Shown here piece by piece: positions 28,408 through 37,088 of a stretch of DNA of 64,000 nt; the stretch's first letter is position 1, and each line of letters begins with the position of its first letter. The notes below the pieces were generated by a model that saw only the letters and a list, made by a program, of their open reading frames with translations, searched no databases and was not told the origin of the DNA. A program made the position numbers and the translations under genes. The DNA comes from an uncultured Acidimicrobiales bacterium (GTDB lineage: Bacteria > Actinomycetota > Geothermincolia > Fen-727 > Anoxymicrobiaceae), in assembly GCA_964512645.1 (NCBI GenBank), contig CAZEJS010000010.1:7022-71021 (forward strand). Reading direction: 5' to 3'.

Positions 28408-29487
28408 TCAGCGCCTGCTCTGTGACACACGCCGGAGACCTTCGACCTGCTCGGGGGCTCCGGAGACGATGAGGATGTCACCCGCGTCGAGGACCGTATC
28501 GCCCCTCGGGTTTACCAGGAAGTCCCTCTTGGGCCTCTTGAGCCCGAGTATTCCCACGCCTTTCAGGTCCCCCACCAGGACATCCCTGATGGCCCGGCCG
28601 ATAACTGCGGCGCCAGGCTCGACGGAAATGTCCTCCAGGGTGAGTTCAACCAGCTCGCCGTGCGTTACAACGTCGAGGAAGTCGCAGACAAGCGGCTTGA
28701 GCAGCAGGGCGGCCATCCTCCTCCCTCCTACGTTGTGGGGAGAGATCGCGCGATCGGCGCCCGCGCGATATAGCTTCGATTCCGTGTCGTCGGAGTTGCA
28801 CCTGCCGACGATGAACATGTCGGGCCTTATCATTCTCGCGGTCATCGTAACGAAGAGGTTGTCGGCATCGGAGCTCAGTCCGGTCACCAGCCCGGCCGCG
28901 CGCTCGACTCCGGCTTTTCTCAGCATTCCCTCTTCGCTCGCGTCACCGGTGATGACTATGAATCCTTCGCCGCCGGCGCTCTCCGAGACCGCGGGGTCTT
29001 TCTCGATGACCACGACCGAAGTGCCCCTGGCCTGGCACTCCATCGCTATCTGCCGCCCAACGCGGCCGTAACCGCAGATAATGTAATGTCCGGTTATGTC
29101 GTGCAGCTCTTTCAAGGCCCTTCTCCTCCCCATGATGTCGAGGATCCTTCCCTCGATAAGCAGCTCGACGACGCTGGTCGTCACGTAGACCACGGTGGCT
29201 ACGCCCGCAATAATGATGATCATGGTGAATATCTGTCCAGCGCGAGACGGGAGGACGACCTCCCGGTACCCGACCGTGGCCACCGTGATCACGGTCATGT
29301 AAAGCGCCTCCCAGAAGTTGAGGCGCTCGATTATCATGTACCCGACAGTTCCAACCGTGATGAGTCCGAGGAAGATGAGCAACGCCGTCCTCAGGTGCCA
29401 GTATGGGCTTCTCCTGCTCCGCAAATCACACCCCTCGAAGGACTTCCAGGTACTGAAGCTTCGGTCTGCCCGGGCCGGCCGATCCAC
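28408..29487 (-). CDS. RCK-domain (TrkA-N/TrkA-C) two-TM cation channel, MthK-like, with a non-canonical selectivity filter TVGYRE
   Basis: TM1, pore helix FWEALYMTVITVATVGYRE (codons verified: GGG-TAC-CGG-GAG), TM2, then Rossmann YIICGYGRVGRQIA and a C-terminal TrkA-C domain. Confidence 0.8.
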   Translation of the reverse strand: MDRPARADRSFSTWKSFEGCDLRSRRSPYWHLRTALLIFLGLITVGTVGYMIIERLNFWEALYMTVITVATVGYREVVLPSRAGQIFTMIIIIAGVATVVYVTTSVVELLIEGRILDIMGRRRALKELHDITGHYIICGYGRVGRQIAMECQARGTSVVVIEKDPAVSESAGGEGFIVITGDASEEGMLRKAGVERAAGLVTGLSSDADNLFVTMTARMIRPDMFIVGRCNSDDTESKLYRAGADRAISPHNVGGRRMAALLLKPLVCDFLDVVTHGELVELTLEDISVEPGAAVIGRAIRDVLVGDLKGVGILGLKRPKRDFLVNPRGDTVLDAGDILIVSGAPEQVEGLRRVSQSRR

Positions 29488-29511
29488 GAACGAGGTGCGC
29501 GGGAGCGCCCC

Positions 29512-29982
29512 TCAGAGGAAATCCTGCGGCTCGACGTGGTCGAGAAAATCGCGGAAACGCTGGATTTCGTCCTCGTCGGCGGTCTCCATGACGATGCTGG
29601 CCTCGTCGAGCACTCCCTCGTTCGCGTAAATCGGCACATCCATGCGAACGGCCAGCGCTATCGCGTCGGACGGCCTGGCGCTTATCACGTGCTTGCCGCC
29701 GTCGGCGATCATTGTTATTTCGGCAAAGAAAGTCCCGTCTACGAGGTCGTTGATGAGCACCCTTTCCACGCCGACGTCCAGGTCGTCGAGGACGTTCTTG
29801 AAGAGGTCGTGCGTCATCGGCCTCGCCGTCTCGACTCCCTGTACGGCGAAGGCGATCGCCGTCGCCTCGAACGCACCAATCCATATCGGGAGGAAGCGGT
29901 CGCCCTCGTTCTCCTGGAGCAGGACTATCGGCTGATTCGTCGGCAGTTCCACGCGCACGCCCACGATGTTCATCTTGATCAT
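29512..29982 (-). CDS. Bifunctional nuclease family protein (DUF151/BFN)
   Basis: MIKMNIVGVRVELPTNQPIVLL..RFLPIWIGAFEATAIA matches the BFN family; start at ATG 29982, or at 29973; 24 nt upstream of the channel gene. Confidence 0.8.
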   Translation of the reverse strand: MIKMNIVGVRVELPTNQPIVLLQENEGDRFLPIWIGAFEATAIAFAVQGVETARPMTHDLFKNVLDDLDVGVERVLINDLVDGTFFAEITMIADGGKHVISARPSDAIALAVRMDVPIYANEGVLDEASIVMETADEDEIQRFRDFLDHVEPQDFL

Positions 29983-30108
29983 CTGCCTCACCGACTCCTT
30001 TATACTCCAACGCCATACCCCGGTCAAACAACGCCGGAAAGGCGGCTGCGGGGGCTCCGTCCCGCCTCAACGCAAGACCCTTCAGACCGCGCGGAGACGC
30101 CGGACGAC

Positions 30109-31512
30109 TCAGAAAATGCGAAACGGCGCGGAGATGATCCTGCCCATCCAGCAGGCACTGTACCAGAAGAACGCCCAGATCGCTCCGGGGAGATTGGAAC
30201 CGGACTGCGCACGAGCCGCAACGGCCTCGACGCCGGCGAAAGCCGAGTTGTCGAGGGTCACGGTTATCGTGCCCAGCTTCTGGCCGGCTCTGACCGGCGA
30301 GCCCGCGCTCCGCTGGACGGCGGTCGCAACCTTGAACACATCGCCGGACCCCACGAAAGTCAGAGAAGCCAGGTCCCCGCCGGACACCACGCCGACCGAG
30401 CGCCTCGGGAAGGAGCTCACCCTGCACCGCCCGAGTTTCTGGCCCTTGCCGGAGAAAACCAGGCGGGCGGTGTTGCCGAAGCCGTAGTTGAACAGCGCCG
30501 AGACGTCGTCGGCTCTGTGCGAGCTGTTCAGAACCACCGCGATCAGGCCTTTGCCGTCACGCTTGGCTGATGCCGCAAGGCACATGCCGGCCTTTCCCGT
30601 GTAGCCGGTCTTGATCCCGTCGGCGCCTTGGTAGCGGGCCAGGATCTCGTTGTGTCCCACGGCGACCCGGTCCCAGGGCTGTCCTGGCGTGGGAATGGAG
30701 TATTTCGGCGTGGATACGATTCTCGCCAGCACCGGGTCCCGCATGACCGCCCGGCCTATCAGTGCGAGGTCGTAGGCGCTCGAGTAGTGATCTCCCTGGT
30801 CCAGGCCGTGAGGGTTGGTGAAGTGGGAGTCCCTGGCACCGATATCCGCAGCCATCTTGTTCATGAGACCGGCGAACGCATCCGGAGACCCTCCGGCGTG
30901 CTGTGCCAGAGCGAATGCCGCGTCGTTGGCGGACTGGATGAGCATGACGTTCAACAATTGCTCGACGGTGAGGGTCTCCCCGGCAATCAGGTTGATGGAC
31001 TCCTCTCCGACCTGGACGGCCTCCGGGGTGATCTCCACCCGCTCCTTGAGGCCGCACCTGGCCCTGACCACCAGGGCGGTCATCATCTTGGTTGTGCTCG
31101 CCATCGGCAGCCTGGAATGGGCGTTTTTATCGTAAAGCACCCTGCCGCTGTCAAGGTCGGTAAGCACCGCCGCATCCGCCCAGACCCCCGGCGCGGCGTC
31201 TTTCGTGCCCGGTGGTGCCTTATATTCCTTCAGCGTCTCGGCAACAGTCGGTCCGGCGTTCGCGTCGGCGAGGGCAAGCAGGCAGGACACGAAGAAGAGA
31301 AAAACCAGCAACGCCAGCACACCGACGGCAGCGGCCCTTGTCTTCTTGACCCCGGATACCCGCACCCGCGCGTCAGGTCGCCCTCGCTCTCCCGGCCCTT
31401 CGGGGCGCGCGCGAACGGGCGCCGCCGTTCGGGGCGTGTCCGCCTTCGAACGTCGAACCGGCTTACGCCTCGACCTCCTGTTGAGGTAATCCTCGGTATA
31501 GACTCTCTTCAT
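30109..31512 (-). CDS. dac: D-alanyl-D-alanine carboxypeptidase (serine-type, PBP5/DacB-like) with an N-terminal membrane anchor
   Basis: TM segment followed by SxxK (ASTTK), SGN-like and KTG motifs. The start is ambiguous: ATG 31512 or the upstream GTG 31593. Confidence 0.8.
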   Translation of the reverse strand: MKRVYTEDYLNRRSRRKPVRRSKADTPRTAAPVRARPEGPGERGRPDARVRVSGVKKTRAAAVGVLALLVFLFFVSCLLALADANAGPTVAETLKEYKAPPGTKDAAPGVWADAAVLTDLDSGRVLYDKNAHSRLPMASTTKMMTALVVRARCGLKERVEITPEAVQVGEESINLIAGETLTVEQLLNVMLIQSANDAAFALAQHAGGSPDAFAGLMNKMAADIGARDSHFTNPHGLDQGDHYSSAYDLALIGRAVMRDPVLARIVSTPKYSIPTPGQPWDRVAVGHNEILARYQGADGIKTGYTGKAGMCLAASAKRDGKGLIAVVLNSSHRADDVSALFNYGFGNTARLVFSGKGQKLGRCRVSSFPRRSVGVVSGGDLASLTFVGSGDVFKVATAVQRSAGSPVRAGQKLGTITVTLDNSAFAGVEAVAARAQSGSNLPGAIWAFFWYSACWMGRIISAPFRIF

Positions 31513-31672
31513 ACGCTCGCAGTGCGCTCTTCCAACACAAAAAGCCACGCACGATACCGCCGTCTGTCCATGCCATAGCGGGCCGGACAGCACATTTGAC
31601 CGATATCACCGCGGCCAGGTTCCACCAGAGTATATCCCAGCGCGAAACGGCCAACAACACGGGTGTTCTTGC

Positions 31673-32263
31673 TCAACGCGTGTGCCGCCCCTCGATCACC
31701 ACGGCCCCCTCTTCCACCCTCTGCACCGCCGCCCAGGGAATGACCTCCGAGTCGTGTCTGCTCCCGTGCTTTCTCCTCAATCCGTCGATGTAGCTCCTGA
31801 GCCCGGTACTGGCGATCAACATCCCGCGGCTCACCTCCAGTCCGGCGATATCAAGCGATCCGCCCGAGCACGCCAGGACGACGTCGTCGACCCTCTGTAT
31901 CTTCATCCCGTAAGTGTCGACCATCTGCTTGTCCAGGATGTCACGCCTTACGAGCCACTTGCCGGACGCGCTCCGCACCGGGAGCCGGGGGTGAGCGCAG
32001 GAGAGCGTGATCAGCTCCGCGCCGGTGTCCTCGCGCGCCACCTCCCCCCAGGGCAACAGAACCACGATGTCCTCCGCTCGCCGGGCCAGTTCTATCACTC
32101 CCACCCTGTCGGTCCACAGCAGGTGCACGGCAAGGTAACCGATGCGGGGGGCATCACGCGGGTCGAGCGCGAGGTCCTGCAGGTGTCCCACGTGTCTGCC
32201 CTCGCAGTCCTCGACCCTGACCTTCAGCAGTTCCCTGATCCGGAGCTGTTCACCCTCTACCAT
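31673..32263 (-). CDS. PRC-barrel domain protein, stand-alone paralogue of the MgtE N-terminal extension
   Basis: 196 aa; it aligns with residues of about 10-170 of the adjacent MgtE (RVEDCEGRHVGHLQDLAL vs RIEDEPGVRIGRVSDVVV; LVRRDILDKQMVDTYGMKIQRVDDVVLA vs LYRDLLDKQIVDMDGYRIVRVGDIRIA). SD AAAGGAG; overlaps the mntH stop. Confidence 0.75.
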   Translation of the reverse strand: MVEGEQLRIRELLKVRVEDCEGRHVGHLQDLALDPRDAPRIGYLAVHLLWTDRVGVIELARRAEDIVVLLPWGEVAREDTGAELITLSCAHPRLPVRSASGKWLVRRDILDKQMVDTYGMKIQRVDDVVLACSGGSLDIAGLEVSRGMLIASTGLRSYIDGLRRKHGSRHDSEVIPWAAVQRVEEGAVVIEGRHTR

Positions 32264-32280
32264 TGCGCCCGGCTCCTTTC

Positions 32281-33546
32281 TCACCTGCCGACAATCCGCA
32301 AGCTCGACAGGACCAGCCACAGGTCGAGCCCGTACAGGACCGCGACCGCGACCCACGCCACGACGTTGTAGGCACCGCCGTTGACGTGGTCTCCCATTAC
32401 GTCCCTGTCCCTTATGATCTTCAGCATGCAGGTCAGGACCACCGGGAGGAGCAGCCCGTTGATGGCCTGCGATGCCAGCATCACTGTTATGAGGGGAACC
32501 TTCGGCACAAGCACCACCGCCGCACCGCCGGCTATGAACACGGTGTACACGGTGTAGAAATTCGGCGCCTCCGAGATGGTCCGGTCGATACCGTACTCCC
32601 AGCCGAACGCCTCGCAGACGGTGTACGCGGTGGTCAACGGGAGTATGCAGGCGGCGAAGAGGGAGGCGAACAGAAGACCGAAAGCGAACAGGCTGGAAGC
32701 GTAGCGTCCGGCCACCGGCGCCAGCGCACGCGCCGCCTGGTCGGCCGAGGTGATGCTGGTCGCCCCCACCCCGGGCTTGTTGAAGAACGCCGCGGCGCAG
32801 CAGACGACTATCGCGCCAGCCGTTATCGTGAGAAAGACCGCCCCCATCGCGGTGTCGACCCGCTCGTAGGCGAGGTCGGACGCCTTCAAACCCTTGTCCA
32901 CCACCGATGACTGCTGGTAGAACTGCCCCCACGGGGCTATGGTCGTTCCCACTATGGTTATGACCATCAGGATATAAGCAGCGTCGAGCTGCCCGCCCGG
33001 CACGAAAGCGCCCCTTGCCACCTGGCCCCACTCGGGCTTCGCCAGTATCGCGGACACGATGTAAGCGATGTAGACGACGCTGACGAGCAGGAAGACCTTC
33101 TCTACGCGCTTGTAGCTGCCTTTGAGCACCAGGAACCAGACCAGCGCAGCCGACACCGGCACCGCTATCCAGCCGGGCACCCCGAAGACGTGCGCGCTCG
33201 CGGAGATGCCCGCGAAGTTGGAAACGGTGTTGGCGAAGTTGGCCAGTATCATCGCCAGCATTATCAAAGCGGTCAACCTGAAAGAGAACTCTTCTCTTAT
33301 CAGGGCGGCGAGCCCCTTGCCGGTGACGACACCCATCCTCGCGTTCATCTCCTGGACCATGAACAGGAGTATCCCCGCCGGTATCAGAACCCAGAGTATC
33401 TGGTAGCCGTAACGCGCGCCGGCGACGGAGTAGGTGGCGATGCCCCCTGCGTCATTATCGGCGACCATGACGATAATCCCCGGCCCGAGCACCGAGAGCA
33501 GCATGAGCATCTTCTGTTTGTTCATCGCGCCCGCGAGCCGGCTCAC
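32281..33546 (-). CDS. mntH: NRAMP-family divalent metal (Mn2+/Fe2+) transporter
   Basis: GPGIIVMVADNDAGGIATYS...QEMNARMGVVTG motifs; 11 TM profile. Confidence 0.85.
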   Translation of the reverse strand: MSRLAGAMNKQKMLMLLSVLGPGIIVMVADNDAGGIATYSVAGARYGYQILWVLIPAGILLFMVQEMNARMGVVTGKGLAALIREEFSFRLTALIMLAMILANFANTVSNFAGISASAHVFGVPGWIAVPVSAALVWFLVLKGSYKRVEKVFLLVSVVYIAYIVSAILAKPEWGQVARGAFVPGGQLDAAYILMVITIVGTTIAPWGQFYQQSSVVDKGLKASDLAYERVDTAMGAVFLTITAGAIVVCCAAAFFNKPGVGATSITSADQAARALAPVAGRYASSLFAFGLLFASLFAACILPLTTAYTVCEAFGWEYGIDRTISEAPNFYTVYTVFIAGGAAVVLVPKVPLITVMLASQAINGLLLPVVLTCMLKIIRDRDVMGDHVNGGAYNVVAWVAVAVLYGLDLWLVLSSLRIVGR

Positions 33547-33567
33547 CTAATACCGCCCTTCATCGCC

Positions 33568-35370
33568 CTACAGCCAAGCCCCGGCCACCAGCAACCCGAC
33601 AGCCAGAAAGACCACAAGGGACGCTGCCATCACCGAGACACTCACGAGCCTCGCGGGGCCGACGACGGGCCTTGGCCCGGCCCTGCCGAGGATCACCGGT
33701 ACGCCGAAGCCCAGAAGTCCGGCCACGGAAATAGCCGCAAAGAGGGCCAGTGCCCCCGCCAGGGCCTGCCTGCCGATGTCCACCCAGACCAGTGCGGCCG
33801 CGAACCCCAGCGCGCTGACCAGCGCAGCCGCCGCGAAGGTCAGCAGGTACTCCCGGGCAAGCATCCTGGCTATCGCTCCCGGCGCCAGGCGGGACCCACG
33901 CACGTCCCGGACCGCCGCAGCCATGGACCACACGCTCACATCGTGTATCGCCCTCAGCGCGAGCGGCAGGAAATAGACTATCGCCAGCGCCAGCAGGAAC
34001 TCATTCTGGAACGCGTAGAAGAGGGCCATGGCGACGAGGCCGCCCAGAAAGGTCAACATGGTCGCGGCCCACCTGCGGATGTCGAGGGCGTTTCGCACCG
34101 GGGTCCCTTCCTCCTCGAAAGGCACCCCCGAGAGCTGAGCGAAATCCTCCCCCATCTCTTCACGCATCACGTCGATCGCGTCGTCGACCGTCACGATACC
34201 CTTCAATACGTGGTCCTCGTCTACGACGGGCACGGCGAGGAGGTTGTATCGCGTGAGCCGGTTTGCCACGCTCTCCTGGTCTTCGAGCGTCTCCGCCGTA
34301 ATCACGTCCCTCATCATCAGGCTCCCGACGTCCGCGCCGGGACTTGCCCGCAGAAGGTCCCTCAGCGAGAGCACTCCCGACAGGTGCCCTTCGCCGTCGA
34401 CGACGTATACGTAGTAGATGGTCTCGGCTTCGGAACCGACACGCCGAAGGTATTCGATGGTCTCCCCGGCTTTCATGGTCACCGGCACGGCGACGAACTC
34501 CGTGGTCATCCTGCCGCCCGCCGTTTCAGGATCGTAGCCGAGCAGTTCGGATACGATCGAAGACTCATCGATGCCCATGAGTGCCAGAAGGGTCTGGGCC
34601 TTGTCCCTCGGGAGCGAACCCAGGATGTCCGCCGCCTCGTCCGGGGGCATTATCTCCAGCAACTCGGAAAGTCTCTCGTCTTCCAGCGCATCCGCCACGT
34701 CCGAGCGGATGCCGGGCAGAATCCTGGAAAGCACCTCCGCCGCCTTCGCCTCCTCCACCAGAGTGAGGACCTTGTACCGCTGGTCTTCGGGAAGTTGCTC
34801 GATGATGTCAGCCAGGTCGGACGGGTGTACCTCCAGGAACTCCCGGTACGGCACACGGAGCCGGACGTCGTACGGCATAGGACCCATGGGCGAGACGAGG
34901 TTCCAGGGCACGATGCGGTCTTTGAAGACGGTGGCGTTCAAGCGCTTCAGCCGACCGGTCAGCGGCTGCAGGCCAAGCCGTCGGAGCAGCGCCAGCGCTC
35001 CCACGTCGGCGCCGATCACGCGCAGCTCCGGGCCGGACCTGGCGATACGGATGTCGCCGACCCTCACGATCCTGTATCCGTCCATGTCGACTATCTGCTT
35101 GTCCAGCAGGTCTCGGTACAGGAATATGTCGCCGCTCTCGGCGGTGGCTCCATACGGCGGCCTCTCCGCCACTACCCGGTCGGGCTCGACCCTGCTCACC
35201 GCGGACACGGGGAGAAAGAAAGTGCCGCCGCCCTTGTGGGCCCTGGCCATGAAACCTTTTACCCTGGGAAACCTGGCCTCACTCTCGACGACGACATCCG
35301 ACACCCTACCGATGCGCACCCCAGGTTCGTCTTCGATTCTCCTGCCCATCATCGCGCTCAGATACGGCAT
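33568..35370 (-). CDS. mgtE: Magnesium transporter MgtE with an N-terminal PRC-barrel extension
   Basis: MgtE N-domain, CBS pair, C-terminal 5-TM domain, plus about 150 extra N-terminal residues that resemble PRC-barrel domains. Confidence 0.85.
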   Translation of the reverse strand: MPYLSAMMGRRIEDEPGVRIGRVSDVVVESEARFPRVKGFMARAHKGGGTFFLPVSAVSRVEPDRVVAERPPYGATAESGDIFLYRDLLDKQIVDMDGYRIVRVGDIRIARSGPELRVIGADVGALALLRRLGLQPLTGRLKRLNATVFKDRIVPWNLVSPMGPMPYDVRLRVPYREFLEVHPSDLADIIEQLPEDQRYKVLTLVEEAKAAEVLSRILPGIRSDVADALEDERLSELLEIMPPDEAADILGSLPRDKAQTLLALMGIDESSIVSELLGYDPETAGGRMTTEFVAVPVTMKAGETIEYLRRVGSEAETIYYVYVVDGEGHLSGVLSLRDLLRASPGADVGSLMMRDVITAETLEDQESVANRLTRYNLLAVPVVDEDHVLKGIVTVDDAIDVMREEMGEDFAQLSGVPFEEEGTPVRNALDIRRWAATMLTFLGGLVAMALFYAFQNEFLLALAIVYFLPLALRAIHDVSVWSMAAAVRDVRGSRLAPGAIARMLAREYLLTFAAAALVSALGFAAALVWVDIGRQALAGALALFAAISVAGLLGFGVPVILGRAGPRPVVGPARLVSVSVMAASLVVFLAVGLLVAGAWL

Positions 35371-35394
35371 TGGAAGCTCCCGTCAGAAGGCGAC

Positions 35395-35416
35395 AAAAAA
35401 GCCCTCGGAAGAGGGC
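35395..35416 (-). terminator. Intrinsic-terminator hairpin inside the mgtE 5' leader (candidate riboswitch/attenuator expression platform)
   Basis: Minus strand reads GCCCTC-TTCC-GAGGGC-TTTTTT, about 20 nt upstream of the mgtE SD GGGAG/ATG. A candidate -10 TATAAT (plus 35584-35589) lies about 200 nt upstream. Confidence 0.55.
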
Positions 35417-35632
35417 GTCTCGATCACCCGTCCCCGATAGAATCAGCTCAAGGCACGCTCCCCTCCGCGTGATACCGCACGGACCGGAGCAGAGCCCTGT
35501 CAGGTATTGGTTTCTCGGGTCTGTCGCTTTCCATCATCTCAATCCCGCGCCCGCCCCCACCAGGGGAGCACGTCATTTCAACGATTATACAACAAGCCGG
35601 GCGGTGTTTCGGTGGTCGGCGCGAACGGGGTG

Positions 35633-36532
35633 TCATTCGAGGAACATCTGCTGGCCGGTTTCAGGCGAGCCGGGCGCCTCCTGCCCGGAATCCGGCCCTG
35701 CGCGCCTCTCGGCGGAGACTGCCCCTCCCTCGCCGCCTTCCGCCGGCGCACCGGCAGGAGCCTCGCCGCCTTCGCTCACCGTATCCATGTCCGCGTCCTC
35801 CCCGCTCTCCTCCTCGAGGATGTCCAGGCCGGCCGGACGCGGTAGATACCGGGACAGCGCCTCCCTCAGCAGAGCCCCGGTAAACATCTGGGACAGCGAC
35901 ATCAGGTTCTCGAGGTCCTTTATGGCGGCCCTCTTGGTGTTGGGGTCTTTGTGCTGCAAGTGCGGCCGGATGATCTGCTCGATGAACGAAGCCTCTCGTC
36001 CGACGAACTGCGTGTACATCCTCAAGTGCCTGGGCTCTACCCCGTAACGAAAGAACTCCTTGGCGAGGTTGAGTATCTTCATCTCCGACGGAGGGAAGTA
36101 CTTGCCTTCAGGGCCTTCATGCACGGCCACGATGCCGTATTCGACGAGCTCCTTCACCGTCTCCGCGGAAAGTCCGAGCTTTGCGGGAGCAAGGTCCAGC
36201 GACACCGGGACGGCCCCTGCCAGAGACGGTTCGGCGCCCTGTCCGGACATGACAGCAAGTTCGCCCGCGACCGCCTTTCCGCTACGGAGGTCCTGTATCT
36301 TCCGTTTGATAACCGAGAGCGGAAGATACTCCTCACGTTGAAGTCGAAGTATATAGCTGAGTTGCTTGATGTTCGCGCGAGAGTACTTGCGGTATCCGCT
36401 CTGGGTGCGCTCGGGATTGATCAGACCCTCTTTTTCGAGGAAACGAATCTTGCTTATGGTTATGTCCGGGAACTCCTTCTTCAGCAACTCCTGGACTTCG
36501 CCGATGCCGTATTTCTTTTCCTCTGAAGCCAT
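35633..36532 (-). CDS. MerR-family transcriptional regulator with a long C-terminal domain (Rv1828-like)
   Basis: N-terminal MerR HTH (YGIGEVQELL...ISKIRFLEKEGLI..R...GYRKYS), C-terminal effector region and an acidic tail. Confidence 0.8.
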   Translation of the reverse strand: MASEEKKYGIGEVQELLKKEFPDITISKIRFLEKEGLINPERTQSGYRKYSRANIKQLSYILRLQREEYLPLSVIKRKIQDLRSGKAVAGELAVMSGQGAEPSLAGAVPVSLDLAPAKLGLSAETVKELVEYGIVAVHEGPEGKYFPPSEMKILNLAKEFFRYGVEPRHLRMYTQFVGREASFIEQIIRPHLQHKDPNTKRAAIKDLENLMSLSQMFTGALLREALSRYLPRPAGLDILEEESGEDADMDTVSEGGEAPAGAPAEGGEGGAVSAERRAGPDSGQEAPGSPETGQQMFLE

Positions 36533-36579
36533 TGTTAAACCTCATGAGAAGTCTGAACATAAAGTCAAACCTTAATTGC

Positions 36580-36610
36580 TAATATGCTCAATTCCGGGTG
36601 TGAATGTCAA
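36580..36610 (-). promoter_or_regulatory. Candidate promoter of the MerR gene with a perfect -35 TTGACA and an over-long spacer
   Basis: Minus strand TTGACA (plus 36605-36610), then a 19-20-nt spacer before ATATTA/TATTAG; an elongated spacer is typical of MerR-type promoters. Confidence 0.3.
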
Positions 36611-36620
36611 CACCTGCGGC

Positions 36621-37088
36621 TCATTTGCAGAAAAATATGAGCCGGAACTTCCCTATCTGGATCTCGTCTCCGCTGGAGAGATCCGATTCCTCAACCCTCA
36701 ACTTGTTGACATAGGTGCCGTTGAGGCTGCCCATGTCCTGGATCCTGAAACGTTCCCCGTCCTTACGGATCTCCGCGTGCCTCCTCGACACGGTGATGTC
36801 ATCGAGGAAGACGTCGCTCTCGGGATGCCTTCCGGCTGTTGTAACGTCTTTGGTGAGAACGAAGCGGGTTCCCGCGTTCGGCCCCCTCTTGACGACCAGC
36901 ATCGAAGCACCCGGCAGCAGCTCGTCTTCCGGAACGGCTATCTCCGCTTCGTGCTCGACCTCGGCCTCAACAGGGGTCAGCGTTATGGTGGTGTCCCCGT
37001 CCGGACTCGCCCCCAGGTAGGCGCCGCACTGGCTGCAATAGGTGCTGTCCTCCGGGTTGTTTCTGCCGCACGCGGGGCAAAACATCAC
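36621..37088 (-). CDS. FHA-domain protein with an N-terminal zinc ribbon (GarA/OdhI-like)
   Basis: CPACG...CSQCG Zn-ribbon, then FHA core (GR....D..L.D..VSRRHAEI...G..F.I.D.GSLNGTYVN). Confidence 0.85.
   Translation of the reverse strand: MMFCPACGRNNPEDSTYCSQCGAYLGASPDGDTTITLTPVEAEVEHEAEIAVPEDELLPGASMLVVKRGPNAGTRFVLTKDVTTAGRHPESDVFLDDITVSRRHAEIRKDGERFRIQDMGSLNGTYVNKLRVEESDLSSGDEIQIGKFRLIFFCK

Follow-up and report, generated by a model that had tools for sequence, protein, structure and literature searches.

A candidate Mg2+-uptake operon in an uncultivated Geothermincolia bacterium joins an NRMT-type transporter to a free-standing tandem PRC-barrel protein

Gene content and layout of the operon

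We analyzed a 64,000-nucleotide stretch of DNA (hereafter the window; contig CAZEJS010000010.1 of GenBank assembly GCA_964512645.1, positions 7,022 to 71,021 of the forward strand) from an uncultured actinobacterium of the class Geothermincolia (family Anoxymicrobiaceae), a placement that agrees with the names borne by the closest hits, concentrating on an operon that encodes an MgtE-like protein, an NRMT-type member of the NRAMP transporter family and a small protein built of two PRC barrels, an arrangement that we call PRC2. The listing of open reading frames, together with a direct reading of the sequence, places the three genes head to tail on the minus strand:

35370..33568, minus strand: gene for the MgtE-like protein, 600 amino acids (aa), with the order PRC2, MgtE_N, two CBS domains and a divergent domain of five transmembrane (TM) helices (Pfam and NCBIfam scans; alignment to TtMgtE, PDB 2YVX)
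33546..32281, minus strand: gene for the NRMT-type NRAMP transporter, 421 aa, GTG start
32263..31673, minus strand: gene for the free-standing tandem PRC-barrel protein (PRC2), 196 aa

The gaps between them measure 21 nt (MgtE-like to NRAMP) and 17 nt (NRAMP to small protein), which bears out the tight packing described in an earlier, sequence-only reading of this DNA while correcting its second figure of about 15 nt. The Shine-Dalgarno sequence of the small-protein gene, GAAAGGAG, lies immediately after the TGA of the NRAMP gene. A terminator scan returned no terminator-like site between the three genes, and the one promoter-like match in the intergenic stretches is no more than chance would give (0.7 expected). 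Given this absence of intergenic signals, the three genes are likely to share a single transcript. An alternative GTG start of the small-protein gene at 32284 overlaps the NRAMP stop codon as GTGA, and some database homologues, 203 aa long, are called from such a GTG; of the two starts, it is the ATG at 32263 that has the better Shine-Dalgarno sequence.

The transporter carries the signature of the NRMT clade

The closest solved relative of the NRAMP protein is EleNRMT (PDB 7QIA; E 3.5e-111), to which it is 48% identical in the NRAMP/NRMT alignment, with MntH structures following at only about 1e-28. It falls well short of the cutoffs of both the NCBIfam MntH model NF001923 (155.8 bits, cutoff 430) and TIGR01197 (86.6 bits, cutoff 272.5). 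At the metal site, helix 1 reads D32-A-G-G35, that is, DxxG and not DPGN, and aligns with D55/G58 of EleNRMT; helix 6 reads T201-T-I-A204, that is, TxxA and not AxxM, and aligns with T224/A227. Gly35 and Ala204 accordingly replace the metal-site Asn and Met of MntH (DPGN, AxxMPH). The helix-6b histidines of the proton path are likewise replaced, by W206 and Q211, which align with W229 and N234 of EleNRMT, and Q360 supplies a Gln on helix 10 as in that protein. DxxG on helix 1 with TxxA/T on helix 6 constitutes the published NRMT signature (PMC8806188).

On these sequence features we assign the protein to the NRMT (Mg2+) clade and not to MntH. The sequence-only reading had named the gene mntH, for an Mn/Fe transporter, and had seen in the locus an unusual fusion of Mg2+ and Mn2+/Fe2+ uptake in one transcription unit; the first claim is at odds with the metal site and the model scores, and with the transporter placed among NRMTs the second lapses with it. 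The predicted substrate is Mg2+, as judged from the signature and the identity to EleNRMT, which moves Mg2+ and Mn2+ alike. Close relatives of EleNRMT circulate under public names such as "MntH", "Mn transporter" or "Mn2+/Fe2+ NRAMP", a naming that is likely an annotation error. At the helix-3 position near the metal site that is acidic in EleNRMT (Glu133), the window protein has Asn110 (33217-33219); Asp occupies it in the related loci L001, L002 and L003.

The small protein and the PRC2 module

The small protein matches PRC in Pfam (28.7 bits, above the PF05239 gathering threshold of 21.2) and nothing else; since the scan detected no CBS domain in it, the former description of the protein as "PRC/CBS-like" has to be given up in its second half. 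Its AlphaFold2 model is confident (predicted local distance difference test score 91.8, predicted template modeling score 0.86) and consists of two beta-barrels, the first at about residues 6-87 and the second at about 113-190; a basic helical insert occupies residues 146-166. We recovered 59 homologues of about 195 aa at 40-99% identity, and the family alignment contains many invariant residues, among them the acidic D19, D52, D65, D108 and D126, with E64, D116 and D127 near-invariant. The ratio of nonsynonymous to synonymous substitution (dN/dS) lies between 0.12 and 0.46, with dS saturated. Conserved homologues, constant length, a dN/dS below 0.5 and the confident fold all indicate a real gene, and on the same grounds we rejected a decaying gene fragment.

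The MgtE-like protein begins with a module of the same kind:

34846..35370, minus strand: residues 1-175 of the MgtE-like protein, its N-terminal PRC2 module of two PRC barrels (Pfam PRC in two stretches; hhalign to free PRC2)

Pfam resolves this protein into PRC in two stretches (about residues 6-160), MgtE_N at 182-282 (PF03448, E 1.8e-24) and two CBS stretches (PF00571), and the structure 2YVY is matched at E 2e-46. Residues 176-595 align with TtMgtE through its N domain, tandem CBS domains and five TM helices (E 4e-51). An N-terminal extension had been predicted from the sequence at roughly 150 aa; it is present, and is better described as a tandem PRC barrel of about 175 aa.

The proposed homology between this extension and the small protein was upheld by a direct comparison (BLASTP, 33% identity over 90 aa, E 2e-10), with local identity of about 50% around LxRDxLDKQxVDxxGxxxxRVxD, and more decisively by hhalign of 28 free against 72 fused modules (probability 99.9%, E 6.3e-37). 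The 173 aligned columns take in practically the full length of the small protein and, in the MgtE-like protein, residues 1-174; the small protein corresponds to the entire N-terminal extension. Free PRC2s score 70-119 bits against free PRC2s of other lineages and about 60 bits against the fused module of their own operon, which rules out a recent copy of the neighbor's N-terminus.

Among 1.8 billion representative proteins, 1064 relatives of PRC2 were retrieved at E <= 0.001, and their lengths group near 190-240, 410-430 and 600 aa. NCBIfam contains no model for the free PRC2 and no specific one for the soluble accessory protein described below, which matches only the generic mgtE model, under its cutoff.

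PRC2 adjoins NRMT throughout the surveyed loci

An NRMT alignment served as the query for a scan of GTDB species representatives, of which the best 80 loci were kept and annotated with purpose-built profiles. A PRC2-bearing gene adjoins NRMT in 77 of these, and the remaining 3 are cut by contig ends; no complete locus among the 80 lacks a PRC2-bearing neighbor. The loci divide as follows:

59 of 80 loci: soluble PRC2-MgtE_N-CBS protein of about 418 aa encoded directly upstream of NRMT
4 of 80 loci: TM-type protein of about 600 aa upstream and free PRC2 downstream of NRMT, the arrangement of the window
12 of 80 loci: free PRC2 downstream of NRMT only, with no MgtE-like gene in the fetched flanks
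1 of 80 loci: free PRC2 upstream of NRMT only (Elusimicrobia)
4 of 80 loci: cut by contig ends, one still showing PRC

An MgtE-like gene of the same position and domains, upstream of NRMT, is thus found in 63 of the 80. The soluble type spans Chloroflexota, Desulfobacterota, Omnitrophota, Planctomycetota and others, and the 12 loci with a free PRC2 downstream only are all from Actinomycetota. NRMT and a free PRC2 occur with no MgtE-like gene in the flanks of 6-8 kb fetched to either side (less where a contig is shorter) in 13 representative loci and additionally in L002 and L087, the last two in unrelated neighborhoods. The three-gene order itself recurs in the distant lineages L085 and L086. 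Other combinations exist: L090 has free PRC2, soluble PRC2-MgtE_N-CBS and NRMT, L102 has a TM-type protein and NRMT without a free PRC2, and L103 is probably the same, its contig ending inside the Nramp gene. An Eggerthella-type NRMT that is 92% identical to the 7QIA construct has a gene for a 450-aa PRC-MgtE_N-CBS protein 3 nt upstream (L100, 3645-4997).

PRC2 is therefore the constant companion of NRMT in these loci, the MgtE_N-CBS sensor and the TM anchor being optional. The linkage of the small gene to the NRAMP gene is retained in every related locus examined, with or without an MgtE-like gene, and for this reason the trans-acting subunit suggested by the sequence-only reading is still the most plausible role for the small protein.

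Two loci carry additional genes of these families. L083 (2712-7230), from Ktedonobacterales, encodes two consecutive PRC2-MgtE-like proteins (597 aa with TM helices, then 420 aa soluble) before NRMT, and in L029 (3194-7230) another Nramp gene, a more distant one, lies upstream of the accessory gene.

Both MgtE pore motifs are missing from the membrane domain of the 600-aa protein

The C-terminal part of the 600-aa protein departs from canonical MgtE:

33571..34095, minus strand: membrane domain of the MgtE-like protein, remodeled pore, residues about 426-600 (PF01769 score, alignments, motif scan)

This domain scores 10.7 bits against PF01769, under the cutoff of 27.6. The protein as a whole passes TIGR00400 (mgtE) with 233.7 bits against 232.75, a score carried by its cytosolic part, so that the mgtE label depends on a margin of just 1 bit. 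The motifs PX6GN and P(D/A)X4PX6D define the MgtE/SLC41 family (PMC9276622). TM2 of the window protein reads PLALRAIHD where PX6GN is expected, and TM5 has RPVVGPARLVSVSVM in place of P(D/A)X4PX6D, with Met at the position of the pore Asp432. Our motif scan found both motifs missing from 22 of 22 PRC2-fused TM-bearing relatives and both present in the TtMgtE control. The sequence-only reading had treated this protein as a second uptake channel, a role that the loss of both motifs speaks against.

Many PRC2-fused TM-type proteins share an alternative TM2 pattern, P-x3-[RL]-x2-[HDQE]-[DE], and because it is conserved, the membrane domain looks remodeled and still constrained rather than decayed. 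Examples of the pattern are PLALRAIHD, PLIVRLSDD and PIILRIAEE, and the relatives concerned include L001, L003, L085, L086, P0103, P0112 and P0113. The 600-aa protein is most likely a membrane-anchored form of the nrmT-associated MgtE-like accessory protein, serving as a sensor or regulator and not as a second Mg2+ channel.

A conserved leader precedes the operon

Upstream of the MgtE-like gene lies a leader with the following elements:

35373..35593, minus strand: conserved 5' leader of the operon, with a TATAAT -10 box (35589..35584), an upstream open reading frame (uORF) and an intrinsic terminator
35537..35448, minus strand: candidate leader peptide (uORF), MMESDRPEKPIPDRALLRSVRYHAEGSVP, 29 codons and TGA
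35416..35395, minus strand: intrinsic terminator from the terminator scan, hairpin GCCCTCTTCCGAGGGC plus T6, situated 25 nt ahead of the ATG of the MgtE-like gene

Every type-A relative (type A being our term for the three-gene operons of Geothermincolia) shares the 260-nt region that precedes the MgtE-like gene. Ten copies of the leader were assembled, that of the window and 9 aligned to it (nhmmer E 1e-36 to 1e-55), seven of them recovered by a pattern scan of metagenomes; wherever the contig extends downstream of a leader copy, the same three-gene operon comes next. Across copies the ATG of the uORF is invariant, its length varies from 25 to 31 codons, and its N-terminus, M-x-[ED]-[ST]-D-[KR]-[PS]-x-[KQ], is conserved with variation at third codon positions. 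In every copy the uORF stops inside the invariant block GCCTTGAnnTGAT, and the terminator hairpin is invariant or compensated in all. Just past the stop lies a G-rich segment, CGGGGACGGG, whose alternative pairing with the terminator's 5' arm would form an antiterminator.

Rfam returned no match in the operon and leader of the window, even at E <= 10 and with the M-box (RF00380) included. Thirteen loci of type B (NRMT and PRC2 only) or other likewise yielded no riboswitch, and in a second set of 13 loci an M-box was detected in L086 only. The L086 element (RF00380, 139 bits, 1701-1864) lies directly upstream of a distantly related operon of PRC2-MgtE-like protein, NRMT and free PRC2, at the position equivalent to the window leader, and ties the three-gene arrangement to Mg2+. 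The leader profile itself had no nhmmer hit upstream of the operons with NRMT and PRC2 only, being confined to the type-A Geothermincolia operons.

We do not claim a riboswitch aptamer in the leader: the RNAalifold consensus was unstable between 6 and 10 sequences, the single-sequence z was -1.25, and the codon-like variation argues for a uORF instead. The leader looks like a leader-peptide attenuator, and it is possibly Mg2+-responsive. It resembles MgtL of the Salmonella mgtA leader, another short uORF in the leader of a Mg2+ transporter gene, whose N-terminus is acidic and contains proline and which lies upstream of a termination decision. We treat this likeness as a lead only; the window differs in its intrinsic terminator and its actinobacterial host.

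Comparison with known systems

In 2014 Shin et al. (PLoS Genet) described pairs of mgtE-like and nrmT genes, leaving the role of the partner open and noting M-boxes on some of these operons (PMC4072509); their text mentions neither PRC nor CBS domains. The window operon shares with those pairs an NRMT-clade gene immediately downstream of a homologue of the MgtE cytoplasmic part, here after a 21-nt gap, and, in some lineages including L086, the M-box link. It differs in that the earlier accessory protein comprises the cytoplasmic part of MgtE only, whereas the 600-aa protein of the window is a full-length one that ends in a divergent five-TM domain, in having a third gene for a free PRC2, and in having a uORF-and-terminator leader in the place of the M-box. 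The Eggerthella-type operon of EleNRMT encodes a soluble 450-aa PRC-MgtE_N-CBS protein upstream and no free PRC2, in contrast to the TM-type protein and free PRC2 of the window; the EleNRMT study (Ramanadane et al. 2022, PMC8806188) mentions neither the operon nor an accessory protein. Relative to TtMgtE (2YVX/2ZY9), the 600-aa protein has the N domain, CBS domains and five TM helices in common, adds the N-terminal PRC2 and loses both pore motifs.

The top structural match of the small protein is the CdpB1/CdpB2 heterodimer (PDB 8QZO, 8ONW). CdpB1 and CdpB2 are two separate archaeal chains of about 90 aa that act with SepF/FtsZ, whereas the window PRC2 is one continuous chain that carries a helical insert and is encoded in the transporter operon of a bacterium, and the likeness of PRC2 to CdpB or YlmC-type proteins is structural only. 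Within the literature that we searched, no paper joins the PRC barrel with MgtE, and the PRC2 module goes unmentioned. The sequence-only reading considered the arrangement undescribed; this does not hold for the pairing of an MgtE-like gene with nrmT, on record since 2014, and it does seem to hold for the remainder. PRC2 in the role of universal partner, the occurrence of PRC2 as a separate protein, and an MgtE-like protein that is anchored in the membrane yet has no pore motifs all appear undescribed, along with the candidate leader.

Flanking genes

Upstream of the operon lie genes for a MerR/Rv1828-like regulator and an FHA protein, and downstream those for a D-Ala-D-Ala carboxypeptidase, a BFN-domain protein and an Ion_trans_2/TrkA K+ channel. 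These flanks (28408-31593, 35633-37088) are syntenic with L001 and L003; we saw no sign that they belong to the operon, and they are missing beside NRMT in other lineages. Cumulative GC skew climbs over the first 18 kb or so of the 64-kb window and declines steadily over the rest, a turn that may mark an origin or terminus of replication, or a switch in the orientation of genes.

Proposed mechanism and alternative explanations

We propose that the locus is a Mg2+-uptake operon built around NRMT, in which PRC2 accompanies the transporter as a docking or regulatory subunit, and we give this reading a probability of roughly 0.6. The identities of the operon parts we hold with high confidence. In the proposed mechanism, NRMT would be the transporter, and the 600-aa MgtE-like protein would act as sensor or regulator through its N and CBS domains, which sense Mg2+ in MgtE. 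PRC2 would dock on the cytoplasmic side of NRMT, so that in most phyla it would tether an MgtE-type Mg2+ sensor to the transporter; in the window the free PRC2 would be a separate subunit, possibly in barrel-to-barrel contact with the PRC2 of the MgtE-like protein. Cytosolic Mg2+ occupancy would then throttle transport by NRMT through the PRC2 complex, and expression of the operon would probably be set by attenuation at the uORF and intrinsic terminator. We propose the docking step on account of the invariable presence of PRC2 with NRMT, fused, free or both; as to whether PRC2 is in fact a protein-protein adaptor on the cytoplasmic face, we regard the chances as about even.

Several observations weigh against this proposal. 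Ca_c0685 and Ca_c3329 each complement a Mg2+-transport mutant on their own, co-expression of the A. capsulatum MgtE-like gene changed nothing, and A. capsulatum NrmT behaved as a Mn2+ transporter, which makes the substrate here uncertain (PMC4072509). EleNRMT was characterized as a purified, reconstituted protein with no accessory protein mentioned (PMC8806188). The conserved polar/acidic pair of TM2 could allow the MgtE-like membrane domain still to conduct some ion, contact of PRC2 with NRMT or the MgtE-like protein is deduced from gene linkage, and the 80 loci are those closest to the window NRMT (at least 50% identity) and not a sample of all NRMTs. As NRMTs transport without partners, a regulatory role for PRC2 fits better than a catalytic one.

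The structural match to the CdpB1/CdpB2 heterodimer raises the alternative that the free PRC2 oligomerizes only with the PRC2 of the MgtE-like protein, tuning or scaffolding the sensor with no contact to NRMT. PRC barrels do form hetero- and homotypic chains, and free and fused PRC2 occur together in the window and in L001, L003, L085, L086 and L090, but the 13 representative loci, L002 and L087, where NRMT and free PRC2 stand without an MgtE-like gene in the fetched flanks, though one may lie elsewhere in those genomes, make this explanation unlikely. Far less probable still is that the small protein is a general PRC-barrel factor, of the YlmC/YmxH type in sporulation or division or of the RimM type at the ribosome, whose adjacency to NRMT merely reflects lineage-specific synteny: the adjacency persists in both gene orders when all other neighbors differ (L002, L046, L085-L090), the homology of the protein is specifically to the N-terminal part of those MgtE-like proteins that go with NRMT, and the annotated neighborhoods contain no FtsZ/SepF, sporulation or ribosomal genes.

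Two independent uptake systems on one transcript, an MgtE Mg2+ channel and an MntH importer of Mn2+/Fe2+ of which either or both are gated by the small PRC protein, would accord with the marginal TIGR00400 score, the strong Pfam Nramp match and the Mn2+ transport by A. capsulatum NrmT (PMC4072509). We consider this very unlikely in view of the DxxG/TxxA site without Met or a His pair, an E-value some 80 orders nearer EleNRMT than MntH, the failed MntH model, and a membrane domain that lacks both pore motifs and falls short of PF01769. Shin et al. raised a chaperone option for the MgtE-like fragment (PMC4072509), and the free PRC2 might by extension be a metal-binding buffer or chaperone, and not a gate, that passes on Mg2+/Mn2+ from NRMT. 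The many invariant acidic residues of its family would suit such a function, but with free Mg2+ at millimolar levels there is no obvious need for a chaperone. We know of no PRC barrel that binds metal, and think this option improbable, if somewhat less so than paired uptake systems.

Implications for NRMT-associated PRC-barrel proteins

The prevalence of PRC2 bears on the role of the MgtE-like gene beside nrmT, open since 2014 (PMC4072509). It points to PRC2 as the part that matters, since this module is in every complete locus surveyed and is the sole partner in 13 species-representative loci. We advance only tentatively, and with less than even odds, the broader view that PRC2 is an obligatory and hitherto unrecognized partner of NRMT across bacterial phyla, docking on it and relaying cytosolic Mg2+ status when fused to MgtE_N-CBS, with NRMT and free PRC2 as the minimal form seen in Geothermincolia-like actinobacteria and a new leader-peptide attenuator replacing the M-box. 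In this uncultivated class the leader, with its uORF and terminator, is a candidate regulatory element. Docking of PRC2 on NRMT, if it takes place, would give the PRC barrel a role beyond those listed in the CdpB paper, namely in reaction centres, RimM, YlmC/YmxH, CdvA and CdpB.

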